Source of the DNA: a virus
IMG/VR virus record: IMGVR_UViG_3300044977_000123
Coordinates: 1 to 64,000 of that record
DNA length: 64,000 nucleotides
Strand: one strand, 5' to 3'
Shown here: piece after piece, positions 29,984 to 61,162 of the stretch
Position numbering within the stretch: position 1 is the first letter of the stretch
Layout: each line of letters begins with the position of its first letter
Made by a program: the position numbers and the translations under genes
The notes under the pieces: model-generated
The model's input: the letters and a program-made list of their open reading frames with translations, nothing else
Databases searched by the model: none
Told to the model about the DNA's origin: nothing

Positions 29984-31060
29984 CATCGGTCGACCGATGC
30001 GTTGCCGATCCGCAGGTACTCGTCGCAGGCCCCGGCCCAGCGGTCCCGCCCCTCATCCTGGTCGCTGAAGAGCCGCCATTCGCCGTACGGGCACTCGTAG
30101 AAGCTGTCCGGGCCGTCCGTGGCGAGCTTGGCTATCTCCACCGCGTCGTCAACGTCGCAGGCCTGCTTGACGACGTTGAGCATGTCCCACGGCTGGAAGC
30201 TTCGGCGCGCACCGAAGACCTCCTGCTGGTGGCCGCCGCTGACCCAGTCCCGGCCCTCGTACACGTCGGGCGTACTCACGACGGGGATGATCTCCCCGCG
30301 CCGGAACGGCCACTCGGGCGGCTCGGTCGGGCCCGGCGTCCACGTGCCGGTGATCACCACGAAGCTGATCCGGTCGAGCGGCACGGTCTGCTGCCCATTC
30401 AGCAGCCACAGCAGTTCCTCGGCCTTGGTGTCGCGGCCGGTCACGTAGTCGAACACTTCGATCCCTCTTTCCCGATCAGGTGCTCGCCGAATTCCAGATG
30501 CGCCCCAACGACCGTCGTCCAGCGCCGGGATGTCCAGCCGCAGTAGCACGACGCCCAGCAGCCATGACGGCCAGTGCGATACAGAGTCGGGTAGTGAGTC
30601 ACGGCCGACTCTCCGGCGTCCAGCAGTCGTCGCGGATCGTCCCGTCCGGCCACCAGTGCGTGCGGAATGCCGACAGCACCCAGGTGCAGGTGCGGCGCTG
30701 CTGATCCCAGTCGTGGCCAGTGGGGACTTCGGCATGGGTTCGCCCGCATCCGGGGCAGAGCCACACGTCGGGAAGTTCTCGGGCCTGTTCCAAGGTGATC
30801 CATGTGGCCTCAATGTCCTCGTCGGCGAGCCAGCGCCGTGCCGCCTCTTTCGCGCGCTCTGGGGTGCGTGCCGCGAGCGCCGTCGACCAGTAGCGCTGCG
30901 CGCCGGGGTTCCGCTTCTTGTTGCGGGCGAGGTAGTACCAGCAGATGTCGCCGAGCATGAAGCCGTAGCGGTCGTCAGGAGCGGGGTCCAGCCAGTCGCC
31001 CGGGTTGAGGTAGGCGTTCTCGTCTTTGATGTACGGGCCCATCACGAACACGTCGGTCAC
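29980..31060 (-). other. hypothetical genes: 29980-30456, 30441-30602, 30599-31060
   Basis: overlapping ORFs, RBS. Confidence 0.55.
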
Positions 31061-31422
31061 GTCGCCTCCTGGTAGGGCGTGGCGAGCGCCGTCAGCACGG
31101 CCCGGACGCGAGTGTCACGGCCGCAGGTGCACTGGGCGTCGACCATCTGGTCACAGTCGCACCAGCCGGTCTCGTCGACCGCGTGCTCCCACCCCAGGGC
31201 CTCGTCCAGCAGGGTCCGCCGCCCAGCGACGTCGGCCAGAACACGGTGCGGGTTGAAGTGTCGCCAGAACTGGTCGGCTGCCGGACCGCCGACGCCGTAG
31301 AAGTCCGGCTCCCGGAACATGTCGCGGGCAGCCATGAGCAGGCCCTGCGCCACGCCGTGGTCACGAGCCAGCCAGTCGCGGACCTGCTTGACCAGCGCGG
31401 CAATCTCCGGCGACTCAGGCAT
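31057..31422 (-). CDS. DUF6221-like protein
   Basis: HFNPHRVLADVAGRR.LL...VLTALATPY. Confidence 0.6.
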   Translation of the reverse strand: MPESPEIAALVKQVRDWLARDHGVAQGLLMAARDMFREPDFYGVGGPAADQFWRHFNPHRVLADVAGRRTLLDEALGWEHAVDETGWCDCDQMVDAQCTCGRDTRVRAVLTALATPYQEAT

Positions 31423-34853: not shown

Positions 34854-35651
34854 TCAGCCACGACCAGCCGCGACCATCGCCGCGACCGCGATCCAGCCCT
34901 TGTGCCACGACTGATCGAGCAGGTATCCGGCGCCCGGGTCCCGCTTCAGCCAGCCCCGATGCCCAGTCACCGCAGCCAGCTGGACGACGCCGCGCGGATG
35001 CTCGTCGCGCCAGTGGCCGCCCTGCCGGTCGGCGACGTAGTGCGTGACCGCAGAGACGGCGAGAGCAGCAGCTGCTCGGCGCGGGCTCAGGTTGAGACCG
35101 AGCAGCCGGTCGGCAGCCAGGAGCGCGAGGTCCTCGCGCGGCCCGTAGTCGCAGACGATCCGGTTCGCCGGGTAGATCGCCTCAGCAAGGTAGGTCAGCT
35201 GCGGGTCGAGCCGGCTGAGGTCTGCGGCGTCGAGCCACTGCTGTGCCCAGTCCGCCTGCTCGCTGATGAACGAGCCCTTGGATGCGGCGTGCCAGCGGCC
35301 GTCGTAGTGGAACACGATGATCAGAGAGCCGTCGGCCTTGTCGAACACCTCGAACGGCTCGGCCGGGAGCGGCGGCGCGAAGTCGTGGACGCCGTGCATC
35401 GCCGTCACGAAGATCTTCGGGAACGGGAACGCCACGATCCCGCCCGTGACGTCGTCGGCTATGAGGCCCCGGCAGGCCATGGTGACCGGCGTCCAGATGT
35501 GCCCGTACTGGCAGTCCCGGGTGTACGTGAAGATCGACAGCGGCAGGTCGGGGTGGGACTTGCGGGTGACGTGGCCGGCCTCAATCGCTGCAGCCAAGTC
35601 ATCGGGCGGGAACAGGTCGGCCAAGGTCAAGCCGGTCGTCGCGGTGGTCAC
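34854..35651 (-). pseudogene. chimera: N-terminal part of a T4 Rnl1-like RNA ligase fused in frame to a DUF3307-like C-terminus
   Basis: CRGLI, FPKIF, KADGS, ASKGSF, EAIYPANRIV; then THYVADR...LDQSWH; ligase motifs IV/V absent. Confidence 0.7.
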
Positions 35652-35790
35652 GGGGTGCTCCTTGAAGGTTGAGCAGCGCAGGATTGATCGGGACGGGCAG
35701 GGCTCATGCGCTGAGCGGATCAGAATCGGCGGATCGATGATGCAGGCGTATGAGTCATGGTGCACCCCCGGGCGGGGAGATCGGGCGGGG

Positions 35791-39169: not shown

Positions 39170-40005
39170 GCGGCGTCCTGATAGTCGGGGTGGCAGTGGC
39201 AGGGCTGCGCGAGGGAGAAGCCGTTGGCGTCGGTGACGTCGCGGGTGCGGGTGTCGGGGTCGCAGTCGCGGTCGCCGCACCAGTCGGGCAGGCTGGGAGA
39301 GGCCCGTTGCCGGTCGTCGGCCTGCTTGGCGCGCCAGGTCTGAGCGAGCTCGGGCATGTCGTCGGCTGCGGCACGCCAGAACGCGGGGGTGCGGACCTTG
39401 CACTCGGCGGTGACCCAGGCGATGAACGCCGGTTCGTCGTCCAGGGGGACGACGCCTCGCACGGCTTTCTGGGCGGCAGTGAGTCGGGTGGTGGTTTTGC
39501 TCGCGTCAGCGATGGTCTCTCTCTCGGCGACTGGAGCGGCGGACTGGCCGTCGGCCGGGAGAGGAGAGGTACTTGAGGAGCAAAGAGGAGTAGGGGTCAT
39601 CTGTTGGATGAAGAATCCGGCCGATTCCTCATCTGATGGATGAAGGGTCGTGTTCGATGCTTCATCTGTTGGGTGAAGAATCTCGTCGGCCACTTCGGGA
39701 TCTTCATCTGATGGATGAAGAATCTTGGGGTCCATCACGGGGATGCGGTACCGCGCGGACCTGCCCTTGACGCCTGCCTCGACGACCTCCAGGACACCCT
39801 TGCGGATCAGCGCGCTGCGCAGGTTCGACCAAGCCGGGACGCTCAGGCGCACGCGCCGCAAGATCTCCGGGTCGTTGATCTTCGAGAAGGTGAGACGCGT
39901 CTTCTCGTTCGCGTCCCGCGCCAGGACGATCAGTCCCTTCCACTCCCCCGCCGTGAGGGTGTCCGGGGCATGGTCCATCACCTCTTCGACCAGCTTGATG
40001 CCCAT
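39166..40005 (-). CDS. replication initiator 2 (phage-type)
   Basis: N-terminal wHTH-like region, internal iterons, LPDWCG..CD..TR...PC.CHP C-terminus; coupled to dnaB. Confidence 0.75.
   Translation of the reverse strand: MGIKLVEEVMDHAPDTLTAGEWKGLIVLARDANEKTRLTFSKINDPEILRRVRLSVPAWSNLRSALIRKGVLEVVEAGVKGRSARYRIPVMDPKILHPSDEDPEVADEILHPTDEASNTTLHPSDEESAGFFIQQMTPTPLCSSSTSPLPADGQSAAPVAERETIADASKTTTRLTAAQKAVRGVVPLDDEPAFIAWVTAECKVRTPAFWRAAADDMPELAQTWRAKQADDRQRASPSLPDWCGDRDCDPDTRTRDVTDANGFSLAQPCHCHPDYQDAA
39597..39720. repeat. four iterons TCATCTGWTGGRTGAAG (putative origin 2)
   Basis: copies at 39597, 39629, 39662, 39704. Confidence 0.85.
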
Positions 40006-41016: not shown

Positions 41017-42396
41017 TCAGCCGGCGATGGCCAGCTCGGTGCGTGTGCGGTGAAGGAGGTCCTGGACGGGGATCTCGGCCTTCCAGCGCCTCAGGGCGGC
41101 GGTGTAGTCCCGCACATAGTCCAGGGCGCGCGTGGACTGCACCCGCGACAGGATGTCGACGGCCCGATGCCCCATGTCCAGCCCCTCGTCGAGACGTCCG
41201 GCCTGCAGGTGCGCGGAGCCTACGATAGCGAACCGCATCCCCACCGACCGCGTGAAAACATCGGCCGACATGGTGGCCGCACGGTCGTTCCAAGCAAGCG
41301 CCTCGGCAGGCCGGTGCAGGTCGCGGAACACCTCGGTCGTGTCGGCGGACATTCGGGCATGGGTCATGTAGCTGATCCACGCGGGCTCACCGTCGGGATG
41401 CTCCTCGGCCCGATCCAGCAGCTGCTCGCACTGCGCGACCGCTTTCGCCGCCGCGCGGGCGTCGCCGGCCCGGCCATGCGCACGGGCCTCGATCAGCCGC
41501 GTGAACGCCAGTACACGCGGTGCCGCCGTCCCCTGCGCCCGCTCGTAGGCGCCCTGGGCCATGTCAACAGCCTCCGCCGCATAGCCGCGCAACAGAGTCT
41601 GCAGCGCCATCGTCGTCAGGACATAGCCGCCCAGCTCCACATTCCCGCCAGCCCGCGCCAGAGCCAGGGCCTGGATGAAATGCCGCTGGGCGACATCGTG
41701 ATGGCCGACGTCCACAGCTGACCAGGCCGCCATCCGGGACAGCTCCGCGGTCACCGCGAACAGTTCCCCGCCGATGTCGTCGCTGTACGAGCCGTGGAGC
41801 AGCGGCGCGGCTCGGCGCTGCAGGCAGTCGGTGATCGCGCTGGCCTTCCAGTTCCCGCCGCCGTACTTGGAGTCCCAGGCGCGGGCGTCGTCCGCTGCCT
41901 GCCACAGCTCGTCGAGGTCTGCGCGGCCCACGCGGGCCCCGTCGCGGCGGGCAGTGGCTGCGGCGGCCGGCGTGACGAGCCAGCGGGTGACGGGGGTGGT
42001 GAAGGCGGCGATGGCGAAGGTCTGGCCGAGGAGTTGACGGCGGTTCACGGCGCTCCAGAAGGTGCAGGCGACGCGGACGGCGTCGGCGGGGTCCCTGGAG
42101 AAACTCAACCCCATGTCGGTGCTCGCAGCGGGGAGGCTGACCATGCCGATTTCGGTGACGGTGACCGGCCGGGAGAGTCGTTCACTGAGCGCGACGGCGA
42201 TCAGCGACGGTACCGGGTGGCGCGGCACCATGCCGTAATCCGCCCAGTTGGTGACACTCGTGTACGTGTAGCGCAGGGTCAGGCCCTGCCGCCGGCCGAG
42301 GTGGTTGACCTGCTGGGCCAGCCATGTGCGGCTGGTCTTGCTGGCCTCCAGGAGGCGCTGTAGATCCTGGTTGGGTCCTCGTTGTGCTCGTGCCAT
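41017..42396 (-). CDS. HTH-TPR transcriptional regulator (NsdA-like)
   Basis: GPN..L..LL, LA..VN, LRY...SV..W, SKYGGG, AELSRMAAW.A.D.G....AQRHF.QAL.LA. Confidence 0.85.
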   Translation of the reverse strand: MARAQRGPNQDLQRLLEASKTSRTWLAQQVNHLGRRQGLTLRYTYTSVTNWADYGMVPRHPVPSLIAVALSERLSRPVTVTEIGMVSLPAASTDMGLSFSRDPADAVRVACTFWSAVNRRQLLGQTFAIAAFTTPVTRWLVTPAAAATARRDGARVGRADLDELWQAADDARAWDSKYGGGNWKASAITDCLQRRAAPLLHGSYSDDIGGELFAVTAELSRMAAWSAVDVGHHDVAQRHFIQALALARAGGNVELGGYVLTTMALQTLLRGYAAEAVDMAQGAYERAQGTAAPRVLAFTRLIEARAHGRAGDARAAAKAVAQCEQLLDRAEEHPDGEPAWISYMTHARMSADTTEVFRDLHRPAEALAWNDRAATMSADVFTRSVGMRFAIVGSAHLQAGRLDEGLDMGHRAVDILSRVQSTRALDYVRDYTAALRRWKAEIPVQDLLHRTRTELAIAG

Positions 42397-42594
42397 TGCC
42401 GACCTCCGGGGCCGCACTTTCGGGCTACCGAGCGTAGGCCAATCCGTGGGCGCGCGTGCGGGGTCTGCGAGGAGTTTGCCCCCGTGTTTGCGTGTCCCCA
42501 GGTTACGGGTCGGCGGTTTCCTGATGGTCCGACCGGCTCCCGTACCGTGCTCCAGCCGGCCGCCTCACATCACTTCCAGAGGAGATCACGGCTG

Positions 42595-43599
42595 ATGGAA
42601 AACGTACTGGTCACGGGTGGTGCCGGGTTCATCGGCTCGCACTTCGTCAAGCAGCTGCTGCGAGCCGACGACGTCGCCACCGTGACGGTCCTCGACGCCC
42701 TCACCTACGCCGGACACATCCACAACCTCGGCGAGGCCTTCCTGTCGCCGAAGCTCGCCTTCGTCGAGGGCAACATCCTTGACCGGCCGCTCGTCGAGCA
42801 GCTCGTCGCCCGGCACGACAGCGTGGTGCACTTCGCCGCCGAGTCCCACGTCGACCGCAGCTTCTACGCGGCAGGGACGTTCCTCGCCACCAACGTGCTC
42901 GGCACCCAGGTCCTCCTGGACGCGGCCCAGCGCCACGGCGTCGAGCGCTTCGTCCACGTCTCCACCGACGAGGTCTACGGCCCGCTCCTCACCGGGTCGG
43001 CCGCCGAGGACGCCCCGCTGCGCCCCTCCGTGCCGTACGCCGCATCCAAGGCCGCCTCCGACCTGATCGCACTGTCGTACTGGCAGACCTACGGCGTGCC
43101 GGTGTGCGTCACCCGCTCGTCCAACAACTACGGGCCGAACCAGCACCCCGAGAAAATCATCCCGCTGTTCGCGACACGGCTCCTCAAAGGCGAGCCCGTC
43201 ACCCTCCACGGCCAGGGCCAGCACATCAGGAACTGGGTGCACGTCACCGACAACTGCGCCGGCATCGAACTCGTCCTGCGCGACGGCATCCCCGGCGAGG
43301 CCTACAACCTGGGCGGCGGCACCGATCTGACGAGCCGCGAACTCACCGCGCTGATCCTCGACGCCTGCGGAGCCGACTGGGACCAGGTGACCTACATCCC
43401 GGACCGGCCCGCGAACGACGTGCGCTACTCCATGGACTGGTGCAAAGCCGCCGCTCTCGGCTACAAGCCAACCCAGGACCTGCAGGAGGGGCTGGCGCAG
43501 ACCGTGGAGTGGTACCGCGCGCACCCGGACCGTTGGGCGCCCCAACTGCGCAAGCCCGGCGCACAGCTCCAGCTGTCCGCTCCGACCCCAGGAAGGTGA
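42595..43599 (+). CDS. rmlB: dTDP-glucose 4,6-dehydratase
   Basis: TGGAGFIGS, DALTYAG, HFAAESHVDRS, STDEVYG, YAASK, SNNYGP.QHPEK. Confidence 0.93.
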   Translation: MENVLVTGGAGFIGSHFVKQLLRADDVATVTVLDALTYAGHIHNLGEAFLSPKLAFVEGNILDRPLVEQLVARHDSVVHFAAESHVDRSFYAAGTFLATNVLGTQVLLDAAQRHGVERFVHVSTDEVYGPLLTGSAAEDAPLRPSVPYAASKAASDLIALSYWQTYGVPVCVTRSSNNYGPNQHPEKIIPLFATRLLKGEPVTLHGQGQHIRNWVHVTDNCAGIELVLRDGIPGEAYNLGGGTDLTSRELTALILDACGADWDQVTYIPDRPANDVRYSMDWCKAAALGYKPTQDLQEGLAQTVEWYRAHPDRWAPQLRKPGAQLQLSAPTPGR

Positions 43600-43604
43600 C
43601 GACG

Positions 43605-44741
43605 ATGAACGCAGCAACCAGTCAGGCAGCCGTCAACGCCAAGCCCTTCATCCACGGCCCGGAGGCCGATGCGGTGGCCGCAGTGCTGGCCGAGGGCCAG
43701 TACGGGCACAGTCGGGAGACGGAACGGTTCGAGCAGGAGCTCGCCCGGTTCCTCCAGGTGCCCGACGTCGTCGCGGTGACCTCGGGCACCGACGCCCTCC
43801 ACATCGCGCTCCTCGCGGCAGGCGTCCGGCCGGGCGACGAGGTCGTCGTGCCCTCGATGACGTTCTGTGCGAGCGTGCAGGCGATCCTGATGTGCGGCGC
43901 GGTCCCGCGCTTCGCCGACGTCGACCCCGACGCCCTGTGCGTGACCTCCCGCACCGTCACCGAGGCGATCACCCCGGCCACCAGGGCGGTCATGCCCGTG
44001 CTGTACGGCGGTCGCGCCGTTGACTTGGGCGACATCGCCGACACCCTGACCGACCGGGGCATCGTGATCGTCGAGGACGCCGCGCAAGCGTTCGGCTCCC
44101 GCTGCGGCCCCGTGCGGGTCGGCGGCCGCCCGCAGGTGACGACGTGCTTCAGCTTCGGCCCGATCAAGCAGCTCACCTGCGGCCAGGGCGGCGCGATCGT
44201 GCCCCGCACCGAGCAGGAGGCGGCTACGGTCCGGAGCCTGCGCCTGCTCGGCATTGTCCAGCCCCAGGGCGAACGCCTGCGGACCACGACCTACACGGTC
44301 GAGCAGGCTGGCCTGCGGGCCCCACTGTCCGGCATCAACGCGGCGATCGGCCGCGTCCAGCTGGCCCGGTTCGCGGAGCTGGAGGCCAAGCGCAGGAACC
44401 TGTGGCGCGCCTACGCTGCCCGACTGACCGAGGTGGACGGCGTCGCCCTGGTGGACGTGGACATCGACCGCACGGTGCCGTTCAACTGCGTGGTCCGCGT
44501 CCCGGACCGCGACACCGTCTTCGGGTACATGCGCGACCGGGGCATCGGCGTCGGGGTCCACTACCCGCCGAACCACCTGCAGCCCGCATTCGCCCGCTGG
44601 CACCGGCCCCTGCCCGTGACCGAGACCATCGCCGAGGAGATCATGAGCCTGCCGTTCCACCCCGCCATGGACGAGACCGACACCCAGTCGGTGGTCTCGG
44701 CACTCGCCGACGCACTGCACCACACCGGGGCCGGCCGATGA
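43605..44741 (+). CDS. DegT/DnrJ/EryC1/StrS sugar aminotransferase
   Basis: SGTDALH, EDAAQAFG, FSFGPIKQL..GQGG (PLP Lys), GVHYPP, SLPFHP. Confidence 0.92.
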   Translation: MNAATSQAAVNAKPFIHGPEADAVAAVLAEGQYGHSRETERFEQELARFLQVPDVVAVTSGTDALHIALLAAGVRPGDEVVVPSMTFCASVQAILMCGAVPRFADVDPDALCVTSRTVTEAITPATRAVMPVLYGGRAVDLGDIADTLTDRGIVIVEDAAQAFGSRCGPVRVGGRPQVTTCFSFGPIKQLTCGQGGAIVPRTEQEAATVRSLRLLGIVQPQGERLRTTTYTVEQAGLRAPLSGINAAIGRVQLARFAELEAKRRNLWRAYAARLTEVDGVALVDVDIDRTVPFNCVVRVPDRDTVFGYMRDRGIGVGVHYPPNHLQPAFARWHRPLPVTETIAEEIMSLPFHPAMDETDTQSVVSALADALHHTGAGR

Positions 44742-45379
44742 GACTCGCAGCCGTACTCGGCAAAGGCACCCTCGCAGCCCACGCCTGCGACGTCATCGCC
44801 GCAATGCCCGACACCGTCCTGGACACCGTGGTCCCGAGCGCAGACGAGCCCGACTGGGACATGCGCCTGTCCGACCACGTGGCCGCACGCTGGCCCGACA
44901 TCCGCATCGTGCACTCCGGGGACTGGCGCGAACTGGAGCCGGGTCGCTGCGGCTTGGTGTTCAGCGTCCTGTACGACCGGATCATCGGCCGCAGCCTCAT
45001 CGACGCCACCGAGCAGATCATCAACTGTCACCCGGGCCGACTGCCCCAGTACCGGGGCGCTCGCCCCGTGAACTGGGCGCTGCACAACGGCGAGCAGCTG
45101 CACGGCATCACGATCCACTCCATCGACCCCGGCATCGACTCCGGGCCGGTCCTCGCCGAAGCCCTGTTCTCGATCTGGCCGGACATCGACGAGGTCCAGG
45201 ATGTGTGGCAGCGGTCCATGGAGCACGGACGGCTCCTCATCTCGGACACGCTGCCCAGGCTCGACCGCATCGTGCCCCGCCCCCAGGACGGGACGCAGGC
45301 CGTAACCCACTACATGCGGGACAACGGCCTGCTCGGCGACCGCAGCGACTGGACCAGGTCCCTCTCCACCGGCCGCTGA
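44738..45379 (+). CDS. N10-formyl-THF-dependent (sugar) N-formyltransferase
   Basis: INCHPGRLPQYRG..P, GITIH.ID.GIDSG. Confidence 0.88.
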   Translation: MRLAAVLGKGTLAAHACDVIAAMPDTVLDTVVPSADEPDWDMRLSDHVAARWPDIRIVHSGDWRELEPGRCGLVFSVLYDRIIGRSLIDATEQIINCHPGRLPQYRGARPVNWALHNGEQLHGITIHSIDPGIDSGPVLAEALFSIWPDIDEVQDVWQRSMEHGRLLISDTLPRLDRIVPRPQDGTQAVTHYMRDNGLLGDRSDWTRSLSTGR

Positions 45380-45386
45380 CTGATCC

Positions 45387-46553
45387 TCACCGGATTGCGG
45401 CGTCCAGCAGGACATCGACGAGCCGGTCCGCCGCATCGGGCCGCCCCTGCGACCGAGCCCGCTCCGCCATGACGGTGCGGCGCTCCGGCTCGGCCAGCAG
45501 CGGCGCCAGTGCAGCCCGCAGGACGTCCCCGTTCACCTCCCCGAGCAGCGCGATCGCAGCGCCTGCCCGGTGGAGGTGCTCCGCGTTGTGGGTCTGCTCG
45601 TTGCCCGCAGAGCTGGCGAGGGGAATCAGGACGGCGGCCTTGCCGAGCGCGGTCAGTTCGGCGATCGTGCCCGCACCGCTGCGCGACACCACCACATCGG
45701 CCAGCGCCAGGACATCAGGGAGCTCCGGGCCGACATAGCCCGTGAGCAGGTACCGCGACGCCAGGCCCGGCGCCAGGCTGCTTGTGCGGTCGCGCAGGCC
45801 GGCCAGGTTGCCCGGCCCGCACTGGTGGACGACATTCGCCTGTGCGAGGAGCCACGGCAGGATGCTGCTCACGAGCGTGTTGATCTGCTGCGACCCCTGG
45901 GCGCCACCAGTGACGTAGACCGTAGGCAGCGACAGGTTGAACCCGTACAGGCCCAATGCCTCGACCGCCTTGCCGGGCCGGCCGGTGAAGACCTCCGGCC
46001 GCACCGGGTTCCCCGTGACGACTGCGCTGGCGCGTACGGACTCCGTGAGCAGCGCCAGTGTCGACTCGGAGGAGACCGCGACTCTGGTGGCGACACGCGT
46101 CAGTGCCCGGTTCGCCAGACCCAGGCGGACAGTCTGCTCGTGAATGACGAGCGGCACCCGGCACATCCTTGCGGCCAGCCCGATCGGGACGGCAACGTAC
46201 CCGCCGGTGGCGAGTATGACGTCCGGCTTGAACGCGGCGACGATCGAGCGGGCCTGGGCGACACCCAGCGGCACCCGGCCCATGTCCTTGACGTTCGCTG
46301 GCGAGGCGAGCTTCAGTGGGTTGCTGGACCGTCGGATCTTGCCCGTGGCGACCGGGGCGAAGCGGATGCCCTCTGCTGCGGCGACGCGGGACTCCAGGCT
46401 GTTGGCGACGCCCACCCATAGGACGTCCACGGGCCTGCCTTCGGCGGCGAGTCGGCCTTGGAGGGCTCGTACGGCTGTGAGTGCCGGGTAGGTGTGGCCG
46501 CCGGTGCCGCCGCCGGTGACGATCAAGCGGAAGGTCCGCGAGTCAAGGTTCAC
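45387..46553 (-). CDS. MurG-like GT28 glycosyltransferase
   Basis: TGGGTGGH.YP, GGYV, HEQ, TGNPVR, GGAQGS..IN, SRSGAGTIAEL, EQ.HNA. Confidence 0.88.
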   Translation of the reverse strand: MNLDSRTFRLIVTGGGTGGHTYPALTAVRALQGRLAAEGRPVDVLWVGVANSLESRVAAAEGIRFAPVATGKIRRSSNPLKLASPANVKDMGRVPLGVAQARSIVAAFKPDVILATGGYVAVPIGLAARMCRVPLVIHEQTVRLGLANRALTRVATRVAVSSESTLALLTESVRASAVVTGNPVRPEVFTGRPGKAVEALGLYGFNLSLPTVYVTGGAQGSQQINTLVSSILPWLLAQANVVHQCGPGNLAGLRDRTSSLAPGLASRYLLTGYVGPELPDVLALADVVVSRSGAGTIAELTALGKAAVLIPLASSAGNEQTHNAEHLHRAGAAIALLGEVNGDVLRAALAPLLAEPERRTVMAERARSQGRPDAADRLVDVLLDAAIR

Positions 46554-55392: not shown

Positions 55393-55761
55393 GTGACTGA
55401 CGCCCTGGCGTCCTGGCTCCGTGCCCAGCTCGACGCCGACGAGCAGTGGGTCGACTGCCTGCCGACAGACGCCGACTACGAGCGCTGCGCCATCACCGGG
55501 TCGCTCAGCATCAACCGCATCCGGGCGCTCCGAGTCGTGACGGAGACCGCGGACGTTGCGGCCGTCCGCCGGCAGATCGGCAACCACACAGCGGACGCCA
55601 ACGACTGCTGCCGGACCTGCGCGCACTGGGTCACCGACTGGGTCGACGGCCACAAGACCCGACTCGCCTACGAAGGCGTCCGGGCACCGTGCCTGAGCCT
55701 GCGGCTGCTGGCGCTGCCATATACGGGCAGGCCCGGCTTTCGGGAAGAATGGCGGCCATGA
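55393..55761 (+). CDS. DUF6221-like protein
   Basis: L.SWLRAQLDADE...PC.SLRLLALPY..RPGFREEWRP. Confidence 0.75.
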   Translation: MTDALASWLRAQLDADEQWVDCLPTDADYERCAITGSLSINRIRALRVVTETADVAAVRRQIGNHTADANDCCRTCAHWVTDWVDGHKTRLAYEGVRAPCLSLRLLALPYTGRPGFREEWRP

Positions 55762-56420: not shown

Positions 56421-58800
56421 ATGGCGTCGATCCGCACCTACAACGGAGAGATCCGTATCTGCACGTCCTGCGGCCAGCCCGCCTACGAAGGCGACTACGG
56501 GTGGGAGCACTTCGACGAGCAGTGGGACGGCATCCACTGCAGCCAGTTCCCGCTCGCCGACGACGTCGTGGCAATCAACTGGGACGAGGGATCGCTCGGC
56601 GACCTGAAGGCGCAGTACGTGGACACGCACCCGCAGCGGCAGGGCCAGGGCCAGCGGGCGTGAAGGTGCGGTGAATCCGCGCCCGCGTACGCCCCACCCG
56701 GCGCATGCTGGTCCTACTGCCTCACTCGCAGCGCCCCCGGCCCGGCCGACTCCACCCGTCGGTCGGGACCGCGCATGCCCGGTGCGAGGCGCATCATGGT
56801 CACCGTGGCAGATCCCCAACTGAACTTCCTGCGCAAAGCCGTCCGCGACCAGTGGTGGGCAGCCAGCGCCGCCATCTACCGCGAGCCCCGCGAGCAGATC
56901 TACAGCGCCGACGGCCAGTACCGGGAAGCCGTCATGTGCGACCCGCGCGCCCGTAGCGACCTTGCCGACGCCGAAGCGAAGCGCGGCCTCACCGACCTGC
57001 TCGTCAACATCAGCCGCGACGAGACCGCAACAGCCAAAGAGCGGGCCCTCGCCGGGCGCGTCCTCAACTGGCTCGCGTCCGCCTACAGCGACCGGGCCGA
57101 ATACAAGACCGAGTGGTGGCCGACGGACGCGCCGTGCCGCCAGTGCCACGGCGAGCCGATGGCCGGGTACGCCTGCAACCAGTGCGGGGCGGGTTCGGGC
57201 GCATCATGATGAGCATGACCCCGATCGTCATCGCCCGCGCCGTCGAGACCTGCGGCGGCCTCCCCGCACAGTGGGACGCCTGGACCGCCGACGGCCAATA
57301 CCTCTATCTGCGCTACCGGCACGGCATCGGCACCGTCAACGCCGAGCCCAGTCCGGACATTGCCACCTGGACCGAGGACCACCTGGTTGCCGAGTTCGAC
57401 ACCGGCGACGGGCTCGGCGTCATCGAGCTCGCCGAGTTCTGCGAGCGGGCCGGGCTGGTCCTCGCGGACGGGTTCGAGCATGTGCCGTACGCGGATTACG
57501 TGGAGCAGGAGATGAGGCGGGCATGAGTGAGCAGCCCGACCCGCACAGCCTCGGCGCCGAAACGATGCGCGCCGCCTTCGCCGAACTGGCGAACCCCCGC
57601 CGCACCCTCAGCCCTTACGACGAAGCCCTGATCGCCCACGCCCGGATGCAGCCGCCCGACGATTTCCAGCGCCTCGTCGACGAATCCGTCCTCGCCGGGG
57701 AGCACGTCCACACCTGGCGGGGTGGGGAACTGCGATGTGTGATGGGAGAGTGCGACTGATGGGCGACGACGACCTGACCGCGAGCATCGAGGCCGCCATC
57801 GAAGCGCTGCCCACCGACCTCGTCCCGTTCGACCTCGGCTGCTCCACCGTCCTCACTCTGCCGCCGTGGCCGCCGCTCCTTGCTGGCGCCTGGTACGAGC
57901 GCGGGAAGGGCTGGGGCTGGTACGGGGCCGGTGGGGAACGCGAGCCGGTTCCTGCGGGGATCATCGCCGACGCCGGGCTGCCCACTGAGGTCGACCTGCC
58001 GGACGGGCTGAACGTCCTCTTCTTGCACGGGCGGCCGTTTCGGAACGTGATCCCGAGGAGGCAGCCGTGACGGACGCCGACCGTCTCATCGCCGTCCTGC
58101 GTACCGCGATCACCACGGCCGAGGCGCACCGGCGCGGGCTGGCCGAACTGTGCGACCAGCTCAAGAAGGCGGGGGTGGGAGTGATGCCGGCCTTTGCAGC
58201 ATGGGACGCCGTCAATGCCTCCGAGGCGCTCGTCAGCTCCCTGCGATACCGACTCGGCGAGGCCGAGGAAGCGCAGCGGGAAGACGAGCGGATCGACGCC
58301 AGCCTGCGGGAAACGGGACTCGACCCGGACGACTTCGAGGACGATGAGGACGAGCCGTCCAGCGCCGCAGCACTGCCCGAGTGGGCCCGCGAACCGGCAC
58401 TGCTGATGGACCCGTCGCCGCTTGCAATGCGGATGATCACGAGTGCAGACGTGTTCTCGCGGCTACCGTCGCCCAGCTGCTATCAGACATCGTTCGGTCC
58501 GGTTCACTCGCGGCCGTCGTGCCGCTGCCCGAGGTGAGCGACGCCGACTGGCGGCACGACGGCACCATCCCGCCGATCTGCCACGCGATCGCGGCCGCCC
58601 GGGATGCGGCCATGATGCACTCGCCGTGGGAACAGGAGCTGGAAGTGTTCCTCAACCCGGCCGACGCCAAGGCGTTCGCACCGTTCACCCGCGTCCGGGG
58701 CCTGCCGCTCAAGACGTCGCTCGGCGTCCCCGAAGGCCGAGTGTTCATCTTCGACCGGCACCGGATGCGCTACCTGCCCGACGGGGCGCTCGACTCCTGA
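56421..58800 (+). other. hypothetical genes: 56421-56663, 56796-57209, 57206-57526, 57523-57759, 57759-58070, 58067-58537, 58534-58800
   Basis: mostly overlapping start/stops. Confidence 0.55.
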
Positions 58801-59053
58801 GCTGGCTGCGCCCGCGCCATCCACCGGCCGCCGCGCCCCGGCACCTCGTACGCCTTCCCCGATGCGAGGGGCTCCAGGTCGAGTGCGGCACAGACCCGGG
58901 CGAGCAGGGACTCGGTCTCACCCCGCGTGTCCGCCTGCACCGTCACCATCGCTGCGCTCATGCCCACCATCGTGACTGACCGTCACACCGTTCGCACGAG
59001 GAACGCGAGAAACCGGTCCGCAATCCGCCTGATCCTCCTGTACCGTGGGCGGC

Positions 59054-59187
59054 ATCCAGGTGCGAAGGCGGGTCCTACTTCCACTGTTAATGGGGATGTC
59101 GCGGGTTCGAGTCCCGTCACCGACTTCGGTCGGTGTAGCTCAGTTGGCAGAGCGCCTTGTCGGATCCACCGACCTTGACCTCTGGAT
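59054..59187 (+). ncRNA. yrlA: Y RNA 1 (YrlA-type) with permuted tRNA domain
   Basis: terminal stem ATCCAG/CTGGAT with GGTGCGA/TTGACC Ro site; T arm 59101-117, acceptor hairpin 59118-135, D arm 59136-153. Confidence 0.85.
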
Positions 59188-59204
59188 CAACAACTTCACA
59201 TGCA

Positions 59205-59274
59205 CCTCCCGGTGCGCTGGCCAGCGGCTACTTCTTGGTGAATCACGCCGCAGGCCGACATTGATCTCGGGAGG
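59205..59274 (+). ncRNA. Y RNA 2 (short, no tRNA domain)
   Basis: CCTCCCG-GTGCG...TTGATC-T-CGGGAGG, same Ro-type stem. Confidence 0.7.
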
Positions 59275-59284
59275 ATATGCATCG

Positions 59285-59425
59285 GGGGTGCCCGGTGCGA
59301 CAGCAACGGGTTCATCAATGGGTCGCGGGTTCGAGTCCCGCCCGGTCGGCGCAAGCTGGCCGGTAGCTCAGGCGGTAGAGCAGTTGACTACAACTCCCGT
59401 CGCTGACCTTGATCTCGGGCACCCC
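59285..59425 (+). ncRNA. yrlA: Y RNA 3 (YrlA-type)
   Basis: GGGGTGCCCG/CGGGCACCCC stem with GGTGCGA/TTGATC; T arm 59325-341, acceptor hairpin with GCAA loop, D arm TAGCTCAGGCGGTAGAGC. Confidence 0.85.
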
Positions 59426-59461
59426 ACTGCATGTCTTCCCCTCCACGTGAGGGGTTTTGCT

Positions 59462-61162
59462 TTGTCCCGCTTCAACACCCGGACCGCCCGTCCGTCCGGC
59501 ATATCGCCCGTGACCACGACCGGGCAGACCGTCACCACCCACGAGGGCGGCACCGGCTTCCTCCGCGACGAGAAGAGCGAGCTGTTCCTCCTCGCGGTGG
59601 CGAACTTCGTCGGCCAGGACACCTTCTACGAGCAGGGCGGCCAGCGCGACGACCGCTACACCCAGCTCGTCCGGCAGCTCGCCGTCGCCGACCCTGAGTG
59701 GACCGCTGGACTGCTCGGCTGGCTCCGCGCCGACGGCAACATGCGCACCGCATCGCTCGTCGGCGCGGCCGAGTACGTCAAGGCCCGTCTCGACGCCGCA
59801 GGCAGCCGCGAGCGCCGCATCCACGAGCAGGGGGCCGACAAGGCCGCGACCGTATGGTCCGGCGACAGCCTCGACTACTCCGCCGCCGCGAACCGTCGCG
59901 TCATCGCCTCCGTCCTGCAGCGCCCGGACGAGCCCGGCGAGCTGCTGGCCTACTGGACGTCCCGCTACGGCCGGAACCTCCCGAAGCCCGTGAAGCGCGG
60001 TGTCGCCGACGCTGTCCAGCGGCTGTACAACGAGAGGAGCCTCCTCAAGTACGACACCGACTCGAAGGGCTACCGGTTCGGCGACGTCCTCGAGCTCGTC
60101 CACGCCTCGCCCGCAAAGCCCTACCAGCACGACCTGTTCAAGCACGCCATCGACCGGCGCCATAAGCGCGACAACCCGATCCCCGACGGGCTGCGGATCG
60201 TTCGCAGCCGCGAGGAGCTCTTCAGCCTGCCCGTCAAGGCCCGGCGCGCCGTACTGGAGTCGGCGCAGGGCATGGAGCGGCTCGCGGACGCTGGTGTCAA
60301 CTGGGAGGCACTGGCGGGCTGGCTCCAGGGCCCGATGGACCAGGAGGCGTGGAAGGCAGTCATCCCGTCCATGGGCTACATGGCGCTCCTGCGGAACCTG
60401 AGGAACTTCGACCAGGCCGGCGTGTCCGACAGCGTCGCGCAGCAGGTCGCAGCGAAGCTCGCCGACCCGGAGCAGGTCGCCCGCTCCCGGCAACTGCCGA
60501 TGCGGTTCTACTCGGCGTACCGGGCTGCGCCGTCGCTGCGCTGGTCATGGGCGCTGGAGCAGGCGCTCGGGCATTCGCTCGCGAACATCAACCGGCTGCC
60601 CGGCCGGACCCTGGTCCTGGTCGACACGTCCGGGTCGATGCACGCCGGGTTCAGCAAGGACGGCACGGTGATGCGCTGGGACGCGGCGGTCGTGTTCGGG
60701 ATCGCCCTCGGGTACCGGTGCGCGCAGGCCGATGTGGTGTCGTTCTCCGACGCCGGCTACGGCTACGGCTGGAATTCGCGCGGCAACAGCGACGCGAGCC
60801 GACCGTTCGCGCTCACGCCCGGAGGCTCGGTCCTCGCGGAGGTCAAGCGCTGGAACGACGACGGCTACTTCATCGGCGGCGGCACCGACACTGCTGGCGC
60901 GGTCCAGCGGCACTTCGCCGGGCACGACCGGGTCGTGATCCTCACCGATGAGCAGGCCAACAGCAACGGCTCCGTCGACCGGGCGGTCCCGGCGAACGTG
61001 CCGATGTACACCTGGAACCTCGCGGGTTACCGGGCTGGCCACGCGCCGTCCGGGAGTCGCAACCGGCACACGTTCGGCGGGCTCACCGATGCGGCCTTCC
61101 GCATGGTGCCGCTGCTGGAGGCTGGGGCGAACGCCACCTGGCCCTGGCTCCAGTCCGCCTGA
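59462..61162 (+). CDS. rsr: Ro60/Rsr TROVE-vWA RNA-binding protein
   Basis: TTG start with RBS; TFYE, GNMR, YMALLRNLRN, SRQLPMRF, LVDTSGSM, GGTD, ILTDEQ. Confidence 0.92.
   Translation: MSRFNTRTARPSGISPVTTTGQTVTTHEGGTGFLRDEKSELFLLAVANFVGQDTFYEQGGQRDDRYTQLVRQLAVADPEWTAGLLGWLRADGNMRTASLVGAAEYVKARLDAAGSRERRIHEQGADKAATVWSGDSLDYSAAANRRVIASVLQRPDEPGELLAYWTSRYGRNLPKPVKRGVADAVQRLYNERSLLKYDTDSKGYRFGDVLELVHASPAKPYQHDLFKHAIDRRHKRDNPIPDGLRIVRSREELFSLPVKARRAVLESAQGMERLADAGVNWEALAGWLQGPMDQEAWKAVIPSMGYMALLRNLRNFDQAGVSDSVAQQVAAKLADPEQVARSRQLPMRFYSAYRAAPSLRWSWALEQALGHSLANINRLPGRTLVLVDTSGSMHAGFSKDGTVMRWDAAVVFGIALGYRCAQADVVSFSDAGYGYGWNSRGNSDASRPFALTPGGSVLAEVKRWNDDGYFIGGGTDTAGAVQRHFAGHDRVVILTDEQANSNGSVDRAVPANVPMYTWNLAGYRAGHAPSGSRNRHTFGGLTDAAFRMVPLLEAGANATWPWLQSA

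Follow-up and report, generated by a model that had tools for sequence, protein, structure and literature searches.

Does a small RNA encoded next to the Ro60 gene of an uncultured phage contain a complete but rearranged tRNA, and is such a tRNA meant to decode? The question arises from a stretch of 64,000 nucleotides (hereafter the window), which represents positions 1 to 64,000 of the IMG/VR virus record IMGVR_UViG_3300044977_000123. Upstream of a Ro60 gene this window carries Y RNA 1, an RNA of the YrlA class, which was originally predicted to contain a circularly permuted tRNA-Asn(GUU) with an anticodon arm unusual for YrlA RNAs. Comparison with relatives leads to a different answer: Y RNA 1 is probably a non-decoding mimic of a whole tRNA, and its additional arm is the one known in its family as the V arm. 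The frame of the arm's loop is nearly fixed among relatives, whereas its central triplet varies freely.

All segments on which the original prediction rested are present in Y RNA 1: TTCCA (59079–59083), CTGTTAA (59084–59090), TGGGG (59091–59095) and ATGTC (59096–59100), followed by the T arm, the UUCG-closed acceptor, TA, the D arm and G59154. Three data sets were used to define the structure, i.e. a MAFFT alignment of 19 arm-bearing sequences that was fitted to no structure (A1), a covariance model built from it (R1) and an alignment fitted to R1 (A3). The anatomy of Y RNA 1 is given below, with tRNA numbering in brackets.

59053–59190, + strand: Y RNA 1 (YrlA class), whole unit inferred from the terminal helix, ends approximate
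59054–59059 with 59182–59187, + strand: basal helix, covarying in relatives (CCCGG/CUCGGG versus UCCAGG/CUCUGGA)
59060–59066, + strand: GUGCGAA, putative Ro60-contact motif in an internal loop, as read from the sequence
59067–59078, + strand: 5′ strand of the upper Y stem, pairing with 59159–59170, with one C·A and one U·C mismatch
59079–59080, + strand: UU linker from the Y stem to the lower anticodon stem (positions 27–28 in the original prediction)
59081–59093, + strand: lower anticodon stem with a loop of 7 nucleotides (nt); C59081–G59093, C59082–G59092 and A59083–U59091, paired in 19/19 sequences of A1
59084–59090, + strand: loop CUGUUAA, with the triplet GUU at 59086–59088, as read from the sequence
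59094–59095, + strand: GG (42–43), pairing with C59156 (28) and C59155 (27), respectively
59096–59100, + strand: variable loop AUGUC (44–48), C59100 being the Levitt partner of G15 (59143)
59101–59117, + strand: T arm GCGGG-UUCGAGU-CCCGU, 100% paired in A1
59118–59135, + strand: acceptor CACCGAC-TTCG-GTCGGTG of 7 base pairs (bp), closed by UUCG (59125–59128); all seven pairs covary in A1 and A3
59136–59156, + strand: U8 A9 (59136–59137), D arm GCUC-AGUUGGCA-GAGC (59138–59153), G26 (59154), C27 C28 (59155–59156)
59157–59170, + strand: UU linker (59157–59158), then the 3′ strand of the upper Y stem (59159–59170)

Chen et al. 2014 (PMC4201824) described YrlA RNAs adjoining Ro60 genes in 254 bacteria and 22 phages, with a GNCGAAN0-1G motif near the 5′ end as a putative Ro60 contact, a conserved YUAY sequence and a covarying Levitt pair; the search criterion was a position within about 4 kb of the Ro60 gene on the same strand. 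In Y RNA 1 the T arm lies 5′ of the D arm with the closed acceptor between them, a Ro60 gene follows on the same strand within about 4 kb, and the covarying Levitt pair 15:48 is formed by G59143 and C59100. This pair is kept as G15:C48 or A15:U48 in 94 of 105 distinct relatives. Positions 59060–59068 read G-UG-CGAA-GG, one base more than the published motif, and relatives mostly have GGUGCGCA, or GGUGCGAA, at this place. The upper Y stem shows compensating differences among relatives (GGCGACGG/CCGUCACC and others), and its 5′ strand terminates in the conserved YUAY, represented by CUAC (59075–59078).

The Rfam YrlA model (RF02553) matches Y RNA 1 locally (59094–59156, model positions 24–84) with 38.4 bits when E-value thresholds are applied; this is below the gathering score of 69, which reflects the scope of the model, as it has no positions for the hairpin. 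R1 matches 59067–59158 with 88.2 bits. In the whole 123-kb record R1 finds two matches only, Y RNA 1 and Y RNA 3, the latter being the most Ro-proximal of three tandem Y RNAs.

Relatives of Y RNA 1 in phages and viral contigs

A blastn search of phage records with positions 58900–59500 retrieved 32 records. In Mycobacterium phage Archie, Microbacterium phage SM23 and Xanthomonas/Xylella phages the matched region keeps the rotated order of Y RNA 1, from the hairpin over the T arm and the closed acceptor to the D arm, and adjoins a Ro-like gene; the loop reads CTGTTAA, and the stem sequences differ.

Viral contigs were also scanned in an unbiased manner for a T loop followed by a D arm. The 162 matches comprised 102 tandem tRNAs, 38 unclear cases and 22 YrlA-like RNAs, in which the acceptor is closed and an upstream strand for it is missing. 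In 12 of these 22 there is also a hairpin, spaced from the T arm as in a tRNA, whose loop of 7 nt sits on three inner pairs. A pattern search of viral contigs (GTTACTTC...GGTTCRA) gave a low yield, 11 of its 123 matches being YrlA-like.

A further sample was obtained by means of a Ro alignment (A2), which was used to fetch 80 viral Ro loci. R1 gave 113 matches in these loci. Of these, 12 did not pass the test for a closed acceptor of 7 bp and were dropped; among them were real tRNAs and a few short-hairpin YrlAs. After removal of duplicates 96 distinct closed-acceptor RNAs were left. At least one closed-acceptor YrlA-like RNA lies upstream of Ro on the same strand in 73/80 loci, and 57/80 loci have at least one RNA with the arm.

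The arm had been thought unusual among YrlAs, and this does not hold. A fourth, "V" stem-loop upstream of the T arm was reported for many YrlAs by Chen et al. (PMC4201824), whose seed alignment has a 3-bp stem with a 7-nt loop at this position in 5/7 sequences, and in our survey the arm is present in 64/96 distinct RNAs, a share that is possibly overestimated. Judging by sequence, the arm of Y RNA 1 is the V stem-loop of the family. The R1 alignment bore out the further statement that Y RNA 3 has no such arm.

Two public annotations coincide with arms of this kind. A tRNA-Asn annotated in Microbacterium phage SM23 (L001 1474–1540) and a tRNA-Arg(tct) in Gordonia phage VanLee (L138 1204–1275) each cover the anticodon-like arm plus T arm of a YrlA adjoining a Ro-like gene; both look like false calls caused by the arm.

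Structure of the arm

The hairpin has the shape of an anticodon arm and is conserved as such: its three inner pairs are formed in every sequence of A1 (19/19), and compensating double-sided changes number 6, 9 and 9, respectively. Among 200,000 shuffles of the arm's 17-mer, 0.36% gave a five-pair stem with U33 and a purine at 37 in fixed register, and 0.08% of all 246,410 17-mers in the genome did so; the probability of a chance origin is low.

The two outer pairs required correction. As originally drawn (U59079·G59095 and U59080·G59094), they do not covary, and 6–7 of the 19 sequences in A1 are unable to form them. Positions 42–43 instead pair with the two bases that follow N26: both pairs, 27:43 and 28:42, are Watson-Crick in 56/64 arm-bearing relatives, while a self-contained hairpin with the two U's is found in 3/64. 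In A1, 36/38 cells of these pairs are paired, with 9 and 6 double-sided changes, and the composition of 28:42 in the 64 arms is CG 25, UA 20, GC 8, UG 6 and AU 4. The Rfam YrlA model likewise aligns GG (59094–59095) with CC (59155–59156), and all five hairpin-bearing sequences of the seed alignment fit the pairing of 42–43 with the bases after N26.

Since 42–43 covary with these bases, the cloverleaf is probably opened at 28/29, not at 26/27, and the unit would extend to 59156. Its anticodon stem would then be assembled from three strands, with 27–28 supplied by the 3′ segment, 29–31 by the 5′ segment and 39–43 by one continuous strand. The Ro-binding stem would branch from the anticodon stem between 28 and 29 via conserved linkers; the linker UU at 59079–59080 is nearly invariant (U in 52/64 and 57/64), and the one after position 28 is UA in 31/64 and UU in 12/64 relatives. 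The 4–5 bases between the stem of the arm and the T arm end in the Levitt partner, which places the arm at positions 27–43 of a class I tRNA. Y RNA 1 shows the 5-bp stem, the 7-nt loop, U33 and the purine at 37 of an anticodon arm, its stem being drawn from three strands.

An alternative helix of four pairs (UGGG/CCUU) was rejected. Only G59094–C59156 and G59095–C59155 were supported; the third pair is mostly G·U and the fourth is unpaired in 57/95 sequences.

ARAGORN called tRNA-Asn(gtt) on the reordered sequence, and also on the unchanged 76-mer treated as a circle. This call was not counted for the arm, because 476/500 controls kept a tRNA call after their arm had been shuffled, and Y RNA 3, which has no arm, was given as tRNA-Glu; the score is carried by the T, D and acceptor arms alone.

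Class II variable arms lie between positions 45 and 48 and have 3–5-nt loops and 1–2-nt connectors. Chen et al. 2014 interpreted the hairpin as the counterpart of such an arm and took the Y stem for the anticodon stem. The order of helices around the junction is compatible with this, and in YrlAs without the arm the Y stem does continue the anticodon stem, as seen in the Rfam consensus and the Salmonella Typhimurium structure. The hairpin of Y RNA 1 and its relatives, however, is located 5′ of 42–43 and is followed by a separate variable loop of the class I type (5 nt in 43/64, 4 nt in 21/64). Its 3′ strand is continuous with 42–43, which pair with 27–28, and its loop of 7 nt has the frame of an anticodon loop. 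We therefore regard the variable-arm interpretation as improbable.

Conservation of the loop frame and variability of the triplet

Within the 64 arms the loop frame is nearly constant (C32 in 53/64, U33 in 62/64, a purine at 37 in 61/64 and A38 in 63/64), while positions 34–36 have an entropy of 1.5–1.8 bits each. Twenty kinds of central triplet were found: GCU (16), GUU (10), UGG (7), UGU (5), UUG (4), CUU (3) and others. Position 37 is G after G36 in 15/15 arms and A after other bases in 46/49; this pattern resembles that of true tRNAs and may be the product of a few clades.

Rates were compared in 34 pairs of RNAs at least 90% identical outside the triplet and the acceptor. Differences per site amounted to 0.147 in the triplet (34–36), 0 in the loop frame (32, 33, 37, 38), 0.009 in the arm stem, 0.06–0.09 in other regions and 0.347 in the acceptor-stem columns. 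Some near-identical relatives differ in the triplet only.

Orthologues of Y RNA 1 were identified by flank motifs, seven loci by script and the window together with two Kitasatospora loci by their flanks. GUU is found in the window, in both Kitasatospora loci and in two viral contigs; the other orthologues have GGU, GCU and UGU (once each), a 12-nt stretch without an arm, and one outlying GAC. Neither the GUU triplet nor an Asn identity is thus conserved, and GUU is a state of this lineage, not a constant of the family.

Nine of the 80 loci have at least two arm-bearing YrlAs, and the triplets differ within the locus in all nine. In viral contig L290 three tandem YrlAs (733–824, 883–976 and 1033–1127) upstream of Ro have GUU, GCU and UGG, respectively; the eight other loci have two arm-bearing RNAs each, always with different triplets.

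A fixed frame with a free triplet fits a docking site for proteins that hold on to anticodon loops, with a triplet that is either irrelevant or tuned to local partners, and it also fits a purely structural hairpin. The structural alternative holds that an ancestral anticodon arm was kept only as a U-turn hairpin that props the three-way junction and has no ligand. Conservation of the fold-critical frame positions with drift of the exposed bases counts in its favour; the arm has been lost repeatedly (in Y RNA 3 and in 32/96 relatives), and the model of YrlA origin from a dimeric tRNA transcript (discussed in Wang et al. 2018, 10.1101/312249) agrees with it. On the other side, a prop could be made of any stable hairpin, and what about 95% of arms retain is a loop of 7 nt with C32, U33 and A38. 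The frame is kept across actinobacterial and Xanthomonas phages and low-G+C contigs, and the tRNA-like dependence of base 37 on base 36, which a few clades may have caused, also speaks for more than a prop. We consider a structural leftover possible but unlikely.

Decoding capacity

Whatever its ancestry, Y RNA 1 is predicted not to decode. The 3′ half of the tRNA precedes the 5′ half with a short acceptor linker between them, as in permuted tRNAs; the standard order of arms with free acceptor ends is lacking, the acceptor being closed by UUCG, and ARAGORN found no tRNA at the site of Y RNA 1 in the native sequence.

G73 is the discriminator base used as a determinant by AsnRS. Position 73 is U in Y RNA 1, so the discriminator of tRNA-Asn does not accompany the anticodon here; in the GUU class as a whole it is U in 7/10 and C in 3/10 RNAs, and G in none. 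A pyrimidine occupies this position in 71/96 relatives and does not follow the triplet class. Bacterial serine tRNAs need a long variable arm, and the GCU class, the commonest one, has a variable loop of just 4–5 nt. The acceptors of many relatives are closed by UUCG, UCCG or UGCG, i.e. UNCG-type tetraloops. Around the 28/29 opening, the Ro-binding stem and motif are conserved.

These features disfavor the proposal that Y RNA 1 is the precursor of a real tRNA, i.e. a true circularly permuted tRNA-Asn gene whose transcript is cut, ligated and opened into a decoding molecule. In favour of this proposal, no arm is missing, the acceptor of 7 bp is like the one in the Mycobacterium smegmatis YrlA, which is opened by RNase P and CCA-tailed, and the phage has two RNA ligases and no ordinary tRNA; processing was raised as a possibility by Wang et al. 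(10.1101/312249). Set against this are the pyrimidine at 73 in all ten RNAs of the GUU class, the use of the same scaffold for GCU without a long variable arm, the conserved Ro-binding stem and motif, and the variation of the triplet among orthologues. No splicing-type endonuclease and no bulge-helix-bulge motif turned up, a search aimed at them not having been made. Taken together, a decoding tRNA-Asn is very improbable. The related suggestion of an evolutionary intermediate derived from tRNA-Asn stands in one part: descent from a tRNA is consistent with the dimeric-tRNA model, but an Asn identity has not been conserved.

Possible function of the tRNA-like domain

We propose that in a temperate phage of actinobacterial type Y RNA 1 would be expressed along with the two other Y RNAs encoded immediately 5′ of the phage Ro60 gene. 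By analogy with the family, Ro60 would bind the stem of Y RNA 1 via its motif and the head of the RNA would fold into the L-shape of a tRNA, while the arm would stack as a normal anticodon stem-loop beside the Ro-bound stem. The arm would have been inherited from a tRNA ancestor under selection for loop geometry and not for Asn identity. Such a Ro60 particle might present the shape of a whole tRNA, both elbow and anticodon loop, to a protein that reads anticodon loops.

The most plausible setting for Y RNA 1 would be conflicts over tRNA damage and repair, given that the phage carries genes for two RNA ligases and lacks an ordinary tRNA gene. T4 Rnl1 reseals cut anticodon loops. A ligase of the Rnl1 family is encoded at 34857–35765 on the − strand (PF09511, 3.1e-8; phrog_562, 4.5e-32), and the second ligase lies outside the window, at 119408–120508 (+) of the record (PF09414, 2.9e-17; OB-fold domain; phrog_968). 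No polynucleotide kinase/phosphatase was recognized adjoining either ligase gene. ARAGORN detected no ordinary tRNA gene in the 123-kb record; its sole call, a tRNA-SeC(tca) at 39629–39719, is unsupported by Rfam, which gave no tRNA-family match there at E ≤ 1.

A more specific version, that the exposed GUU loop is a decoy competing with tRNA-Asn or other GUN tRNAs for a tRNA-cleaving defence enzyme or toxin, with the triplet retuned from lineage to lineage, can be offered only with much reserve. The triplet is among the fastest-changing positions and its neighbours are the slowest, tandem arm-bearing YrlAs differ in triplet at all nine loci, as in L290, the phage encodes an Rnl1-family ligase, and competitive inhibition of an anticodon nuclease by YrlA has been suggested in print (Hughes et al. 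2020, PMC7790460). Drift, however, explains the pattern of rates equally well, and one third of the relatives have no arm. Extended to the whole family in bacteria and phages, the V stem-loop would be a complete anticodon arm whose triplet is retuned in each lineage, phages placing several YrlAs with unlike triplets beside Ro60, and Ro60-YrlA particles would be programmable baits or sensors for enzymes that read anticodons, be they defence nucleases, toxins, modifiers or repair ligases. This wider conjecture seems to us rather doubtful; if true, it would supply the long-sought class of partner for the tRNA-like domain.

Several observations weigh against the view of Y RNA 1 as a whole-tRNA mimic shown to a partner. 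The rate of triplet change is akin to that of the freely covarying acceptor-stem columns (0.147 vs 0.347), so neutral drift in a constrained loop suffices to explain the triplet and no ligand is needed. The arm is missing from 32 of the 96 relatives and from the phage's own Y RNA 3. As R1 was built from arm-bearing sequences and A3 was fitted to R1, both detection and pair counts are biased toward the arm. For positions 59053–59190 the three-strand model has an energy of −42.8 kcal/mol, compared with −45.7 for the self-contained hairpin and −50.4 for the minimum free energy (MFE) fold, and the MFE of 59040–59200 is no better than that of shuffled sequences (z = 0.09); folding of single sequences was rejected as a guide, as it neither recovers nor ranks the cloverleaf. 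No RNA contig in public runs covers Y RNA 1. The two ligase genes are at least 23 kb from Ro and unlinked to it.

For the window itself the result is an ordinary one, a further YrlA. At the level of the family, both YrlA and the V stem-loop were known already, including those of the experimentally studied YrlA of M. smegmatis; what the analysis adds is the recognition of this arm as a whole anticodon stem-loop, with the opening at 28/29, whose frame is conserved and whose triplet is hypervariable. Ever since 2014, the question for the Y RNAs of bacteria and phages has been which partner their tRNA-like domain has and what it is for. Most YrlAs adjoining this clade of Ro60 bear such a stem-loop, with the frame fixed, the triplet free and the branch at 28/29, which narrows the search for partners to proteins that read anticodon loops. 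The arm also explains false tRNA calls by gene finders in public phage records, and why the Rfam YrlA model misses such RNAs.

The Ro60 locus and the phage genome

Downstream of Y RNA 1 the locus contains the following features.

59205–59274 (limits approximate), + strand: Y RNA 2, YrlB-like, a Ro-stem-like hairpin by its fold
59279–59434, + strand: Y RNA 3, a YrlA without the arm, identified by Rfam, R1 and its fold
59438–59464 (hairpin 59438–59454), + strand: hairpin and U tract of terminator type, reaching into the first bases of the Ro gene
59462–61162, + strand: Ro60/TROVE gene, with a TTG start inferred from the N-terminal MSRFN common to relatives

The three Y-RNA-like units are packed in 410 bases 5′ of the Ro gene, whose start lies 272 nt downstream of the end of Y RNA 1 (59190 to 59462, both +). 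The gene matches Pfam TROVE (E = 2.7e-14) and phrog_850, an RNA-binding protein (1.9e-50). Its product shares 47–71% identity with the Ro proteins of the 80 uncultured viral contigs, 59% with those of Kitasatospora and Actinocrinis assemblies, which are the nearest Ro60 genes, and at most 47% with those of named Streptomyces, Gordonia and Arthrobacter phages.

Y RNA 2 carries the motifs GGUGCGCUGG and GGCUACUUC and lacks the T, D and acceptor arms, and neither R1 nor Rfam gave a match to it; its GGGAGG (59269–59274) could alternatively pair with the tail of Y RNA 3. Y RNA 3 matches the Rfam YrlA model at 59300–59409 with 48.8 bits (gathering score 69) and R1 at 59302–59386 with 51.9 bits, the arm being deleted, and its MFE fold has z = −5.39. 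At gathering thresholds Rfam had no match anywhere in the window. The flanks of Y RNA 3 are near-identical to those of Ro-proximal arm-bearing YrlAs of relatives (L294, L292, L278 and others); compared with UUCCACUGUUAAUGGGG in these, the remaining ...AUCAAUGGG of Y RNA 3 resembles a loss of the 5′ half of the arm.

A soil metatranscriptome contig of 245 bases is identical to 59227–59471, DNA carry-over being possible. It spans the tail of Y RNA 2, Y RNA 3 and the terminator, and ends just past the U tract. Other matches in public runs were short conserved pieces of T or D arms from other organisms.

The complete record comprises 123,222 bases with a G+C content of 69.3%. It encodes a portal protein, a tail tape-measure-like protein, a serine recombinase, Ku, DnaB-type helicases and helix-turn-helix (HTH) regulators, and on this gene content it probably represents a large, temperate phage. 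The genes neighbouring the Y RNA/Ro60 locus offered no functional clue. Three paralogous DUF6221 genes are present (31060–31422, − strand; 55393–55758 and 56775–57206, + strand), two of them within 4 kb upstream of the Y RNA cluster. A sugar-modification block at 42382–46553 encodes an NAD-dependent dehydratase/epimerase, a DegT-type aminotransferase and a family-28 glycosyltransferase. The region of the tRNA-SeC call (39629–39719), situated between DnaB-like and HTH regulator genes, holds repeated words of the GGATGAAG/CTTCATC type, in direct and inverted orientation, which may form an array of binding sites.

Streptomyces phage Kela has an RNA ligase annotated immediately 5′ of its Ro-like gene (L141 729–1481), and in Gordonia phage Rabbitrun a nucleotidyl transferase gene is located shortly upstream of the Ro-like gene (L139 1–520).

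Comparison with known systems

Within the texts searched, the hairpin of YrlA is nowhere called an anticodon arm, and neither the three-strand stem nor the variable triplet is reported there; an earlier mention in two reviews, in figures or in Burroughs and Aravind 2016 is possible.

The closest characterized counterpart is the YrlA of M. smegmatis, for which Rsr binding, RNase P cleavage and CCA tailing in vivo have been reported (Chen et al., PMC4201824). Like Y RNA 1, it is encoded upstream of a Ro60 orthologue together with a second Y RNA and has the T arm, a 7-bp closed acceptor and the D arm in the same order. A hairpin of 3 bp with a 7-nt loop (CCA-CUUCUAA-UGG) follows GUUAC, and A42 A43 can pair with the UU after N26, as in our model of Y RNA 1. 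It differs in that it is bacterial and has the triplet UCU, whereas Y RNA 1, with GUU, belongs to a phage and is known from its sequence. In the text of Chen et al. that was searched, this hairpin is labeled V, a variable arm, and not an anticodon arm.

The S. Typhimurium YrlA and RF02553 share with Y RNA 1 the T and D arm sequences, the closed acceptor, the Levitt pair, the UA of YUAY and a Ro-binding stem on the anticodon side. Unlike Y RNA 1, the S. Typhimurium RNA has no hairpin and no anticodon loop, as described with its structure by Wang et al. (10.1101/312249), and its Y stem directly continues the anticodon stem. The same authors discussed an origin from dimeric tRNA transcripts and noted the likeness to permuted tRNA genes.

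Red algae and some archaea have circularly permuted tRNA genes that, like Y RNA 1, place the 3′ half first, start out with a closed acceptor and join their termini by a helix at the anticodon end. In these genes a circular intermediate and a splicing endonuclease lead to a decoding tRNA (Wang et al., 10.1101/312249), whereas in Y RNA 1 the helix is the conserved stem predicted to bind Ro60, the opening is placed at 28/29 and the identity elements do not fit.

Mycobacteriophage ET08 and 21 other phages (Chen et al., Table S2) encode a Ro60 with an upstream YrlA, as does the phage described here. The YrlA of ET08 has CUC-AUUGAAA-GAG at the place of the arm. The present phage differs from them in its lineage (Ro identity of at most 47% to named phages), its triplet and its three tandem Y RNAs.

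Among the tRNA-like RNAs linked to RNA repair, the b7a-tRNA (Burroughs and Aravind 2016, as cited by Wang et al. 2018 and Iyer et al. 2021) is also a tRNA-like partner of an RNA-binding platform, with a proposed role in RNA repair. In contrast to Y RNA 1, it is described as similar to an authentic tRNA, is not permuted and has a Band-7 protein as its partner.

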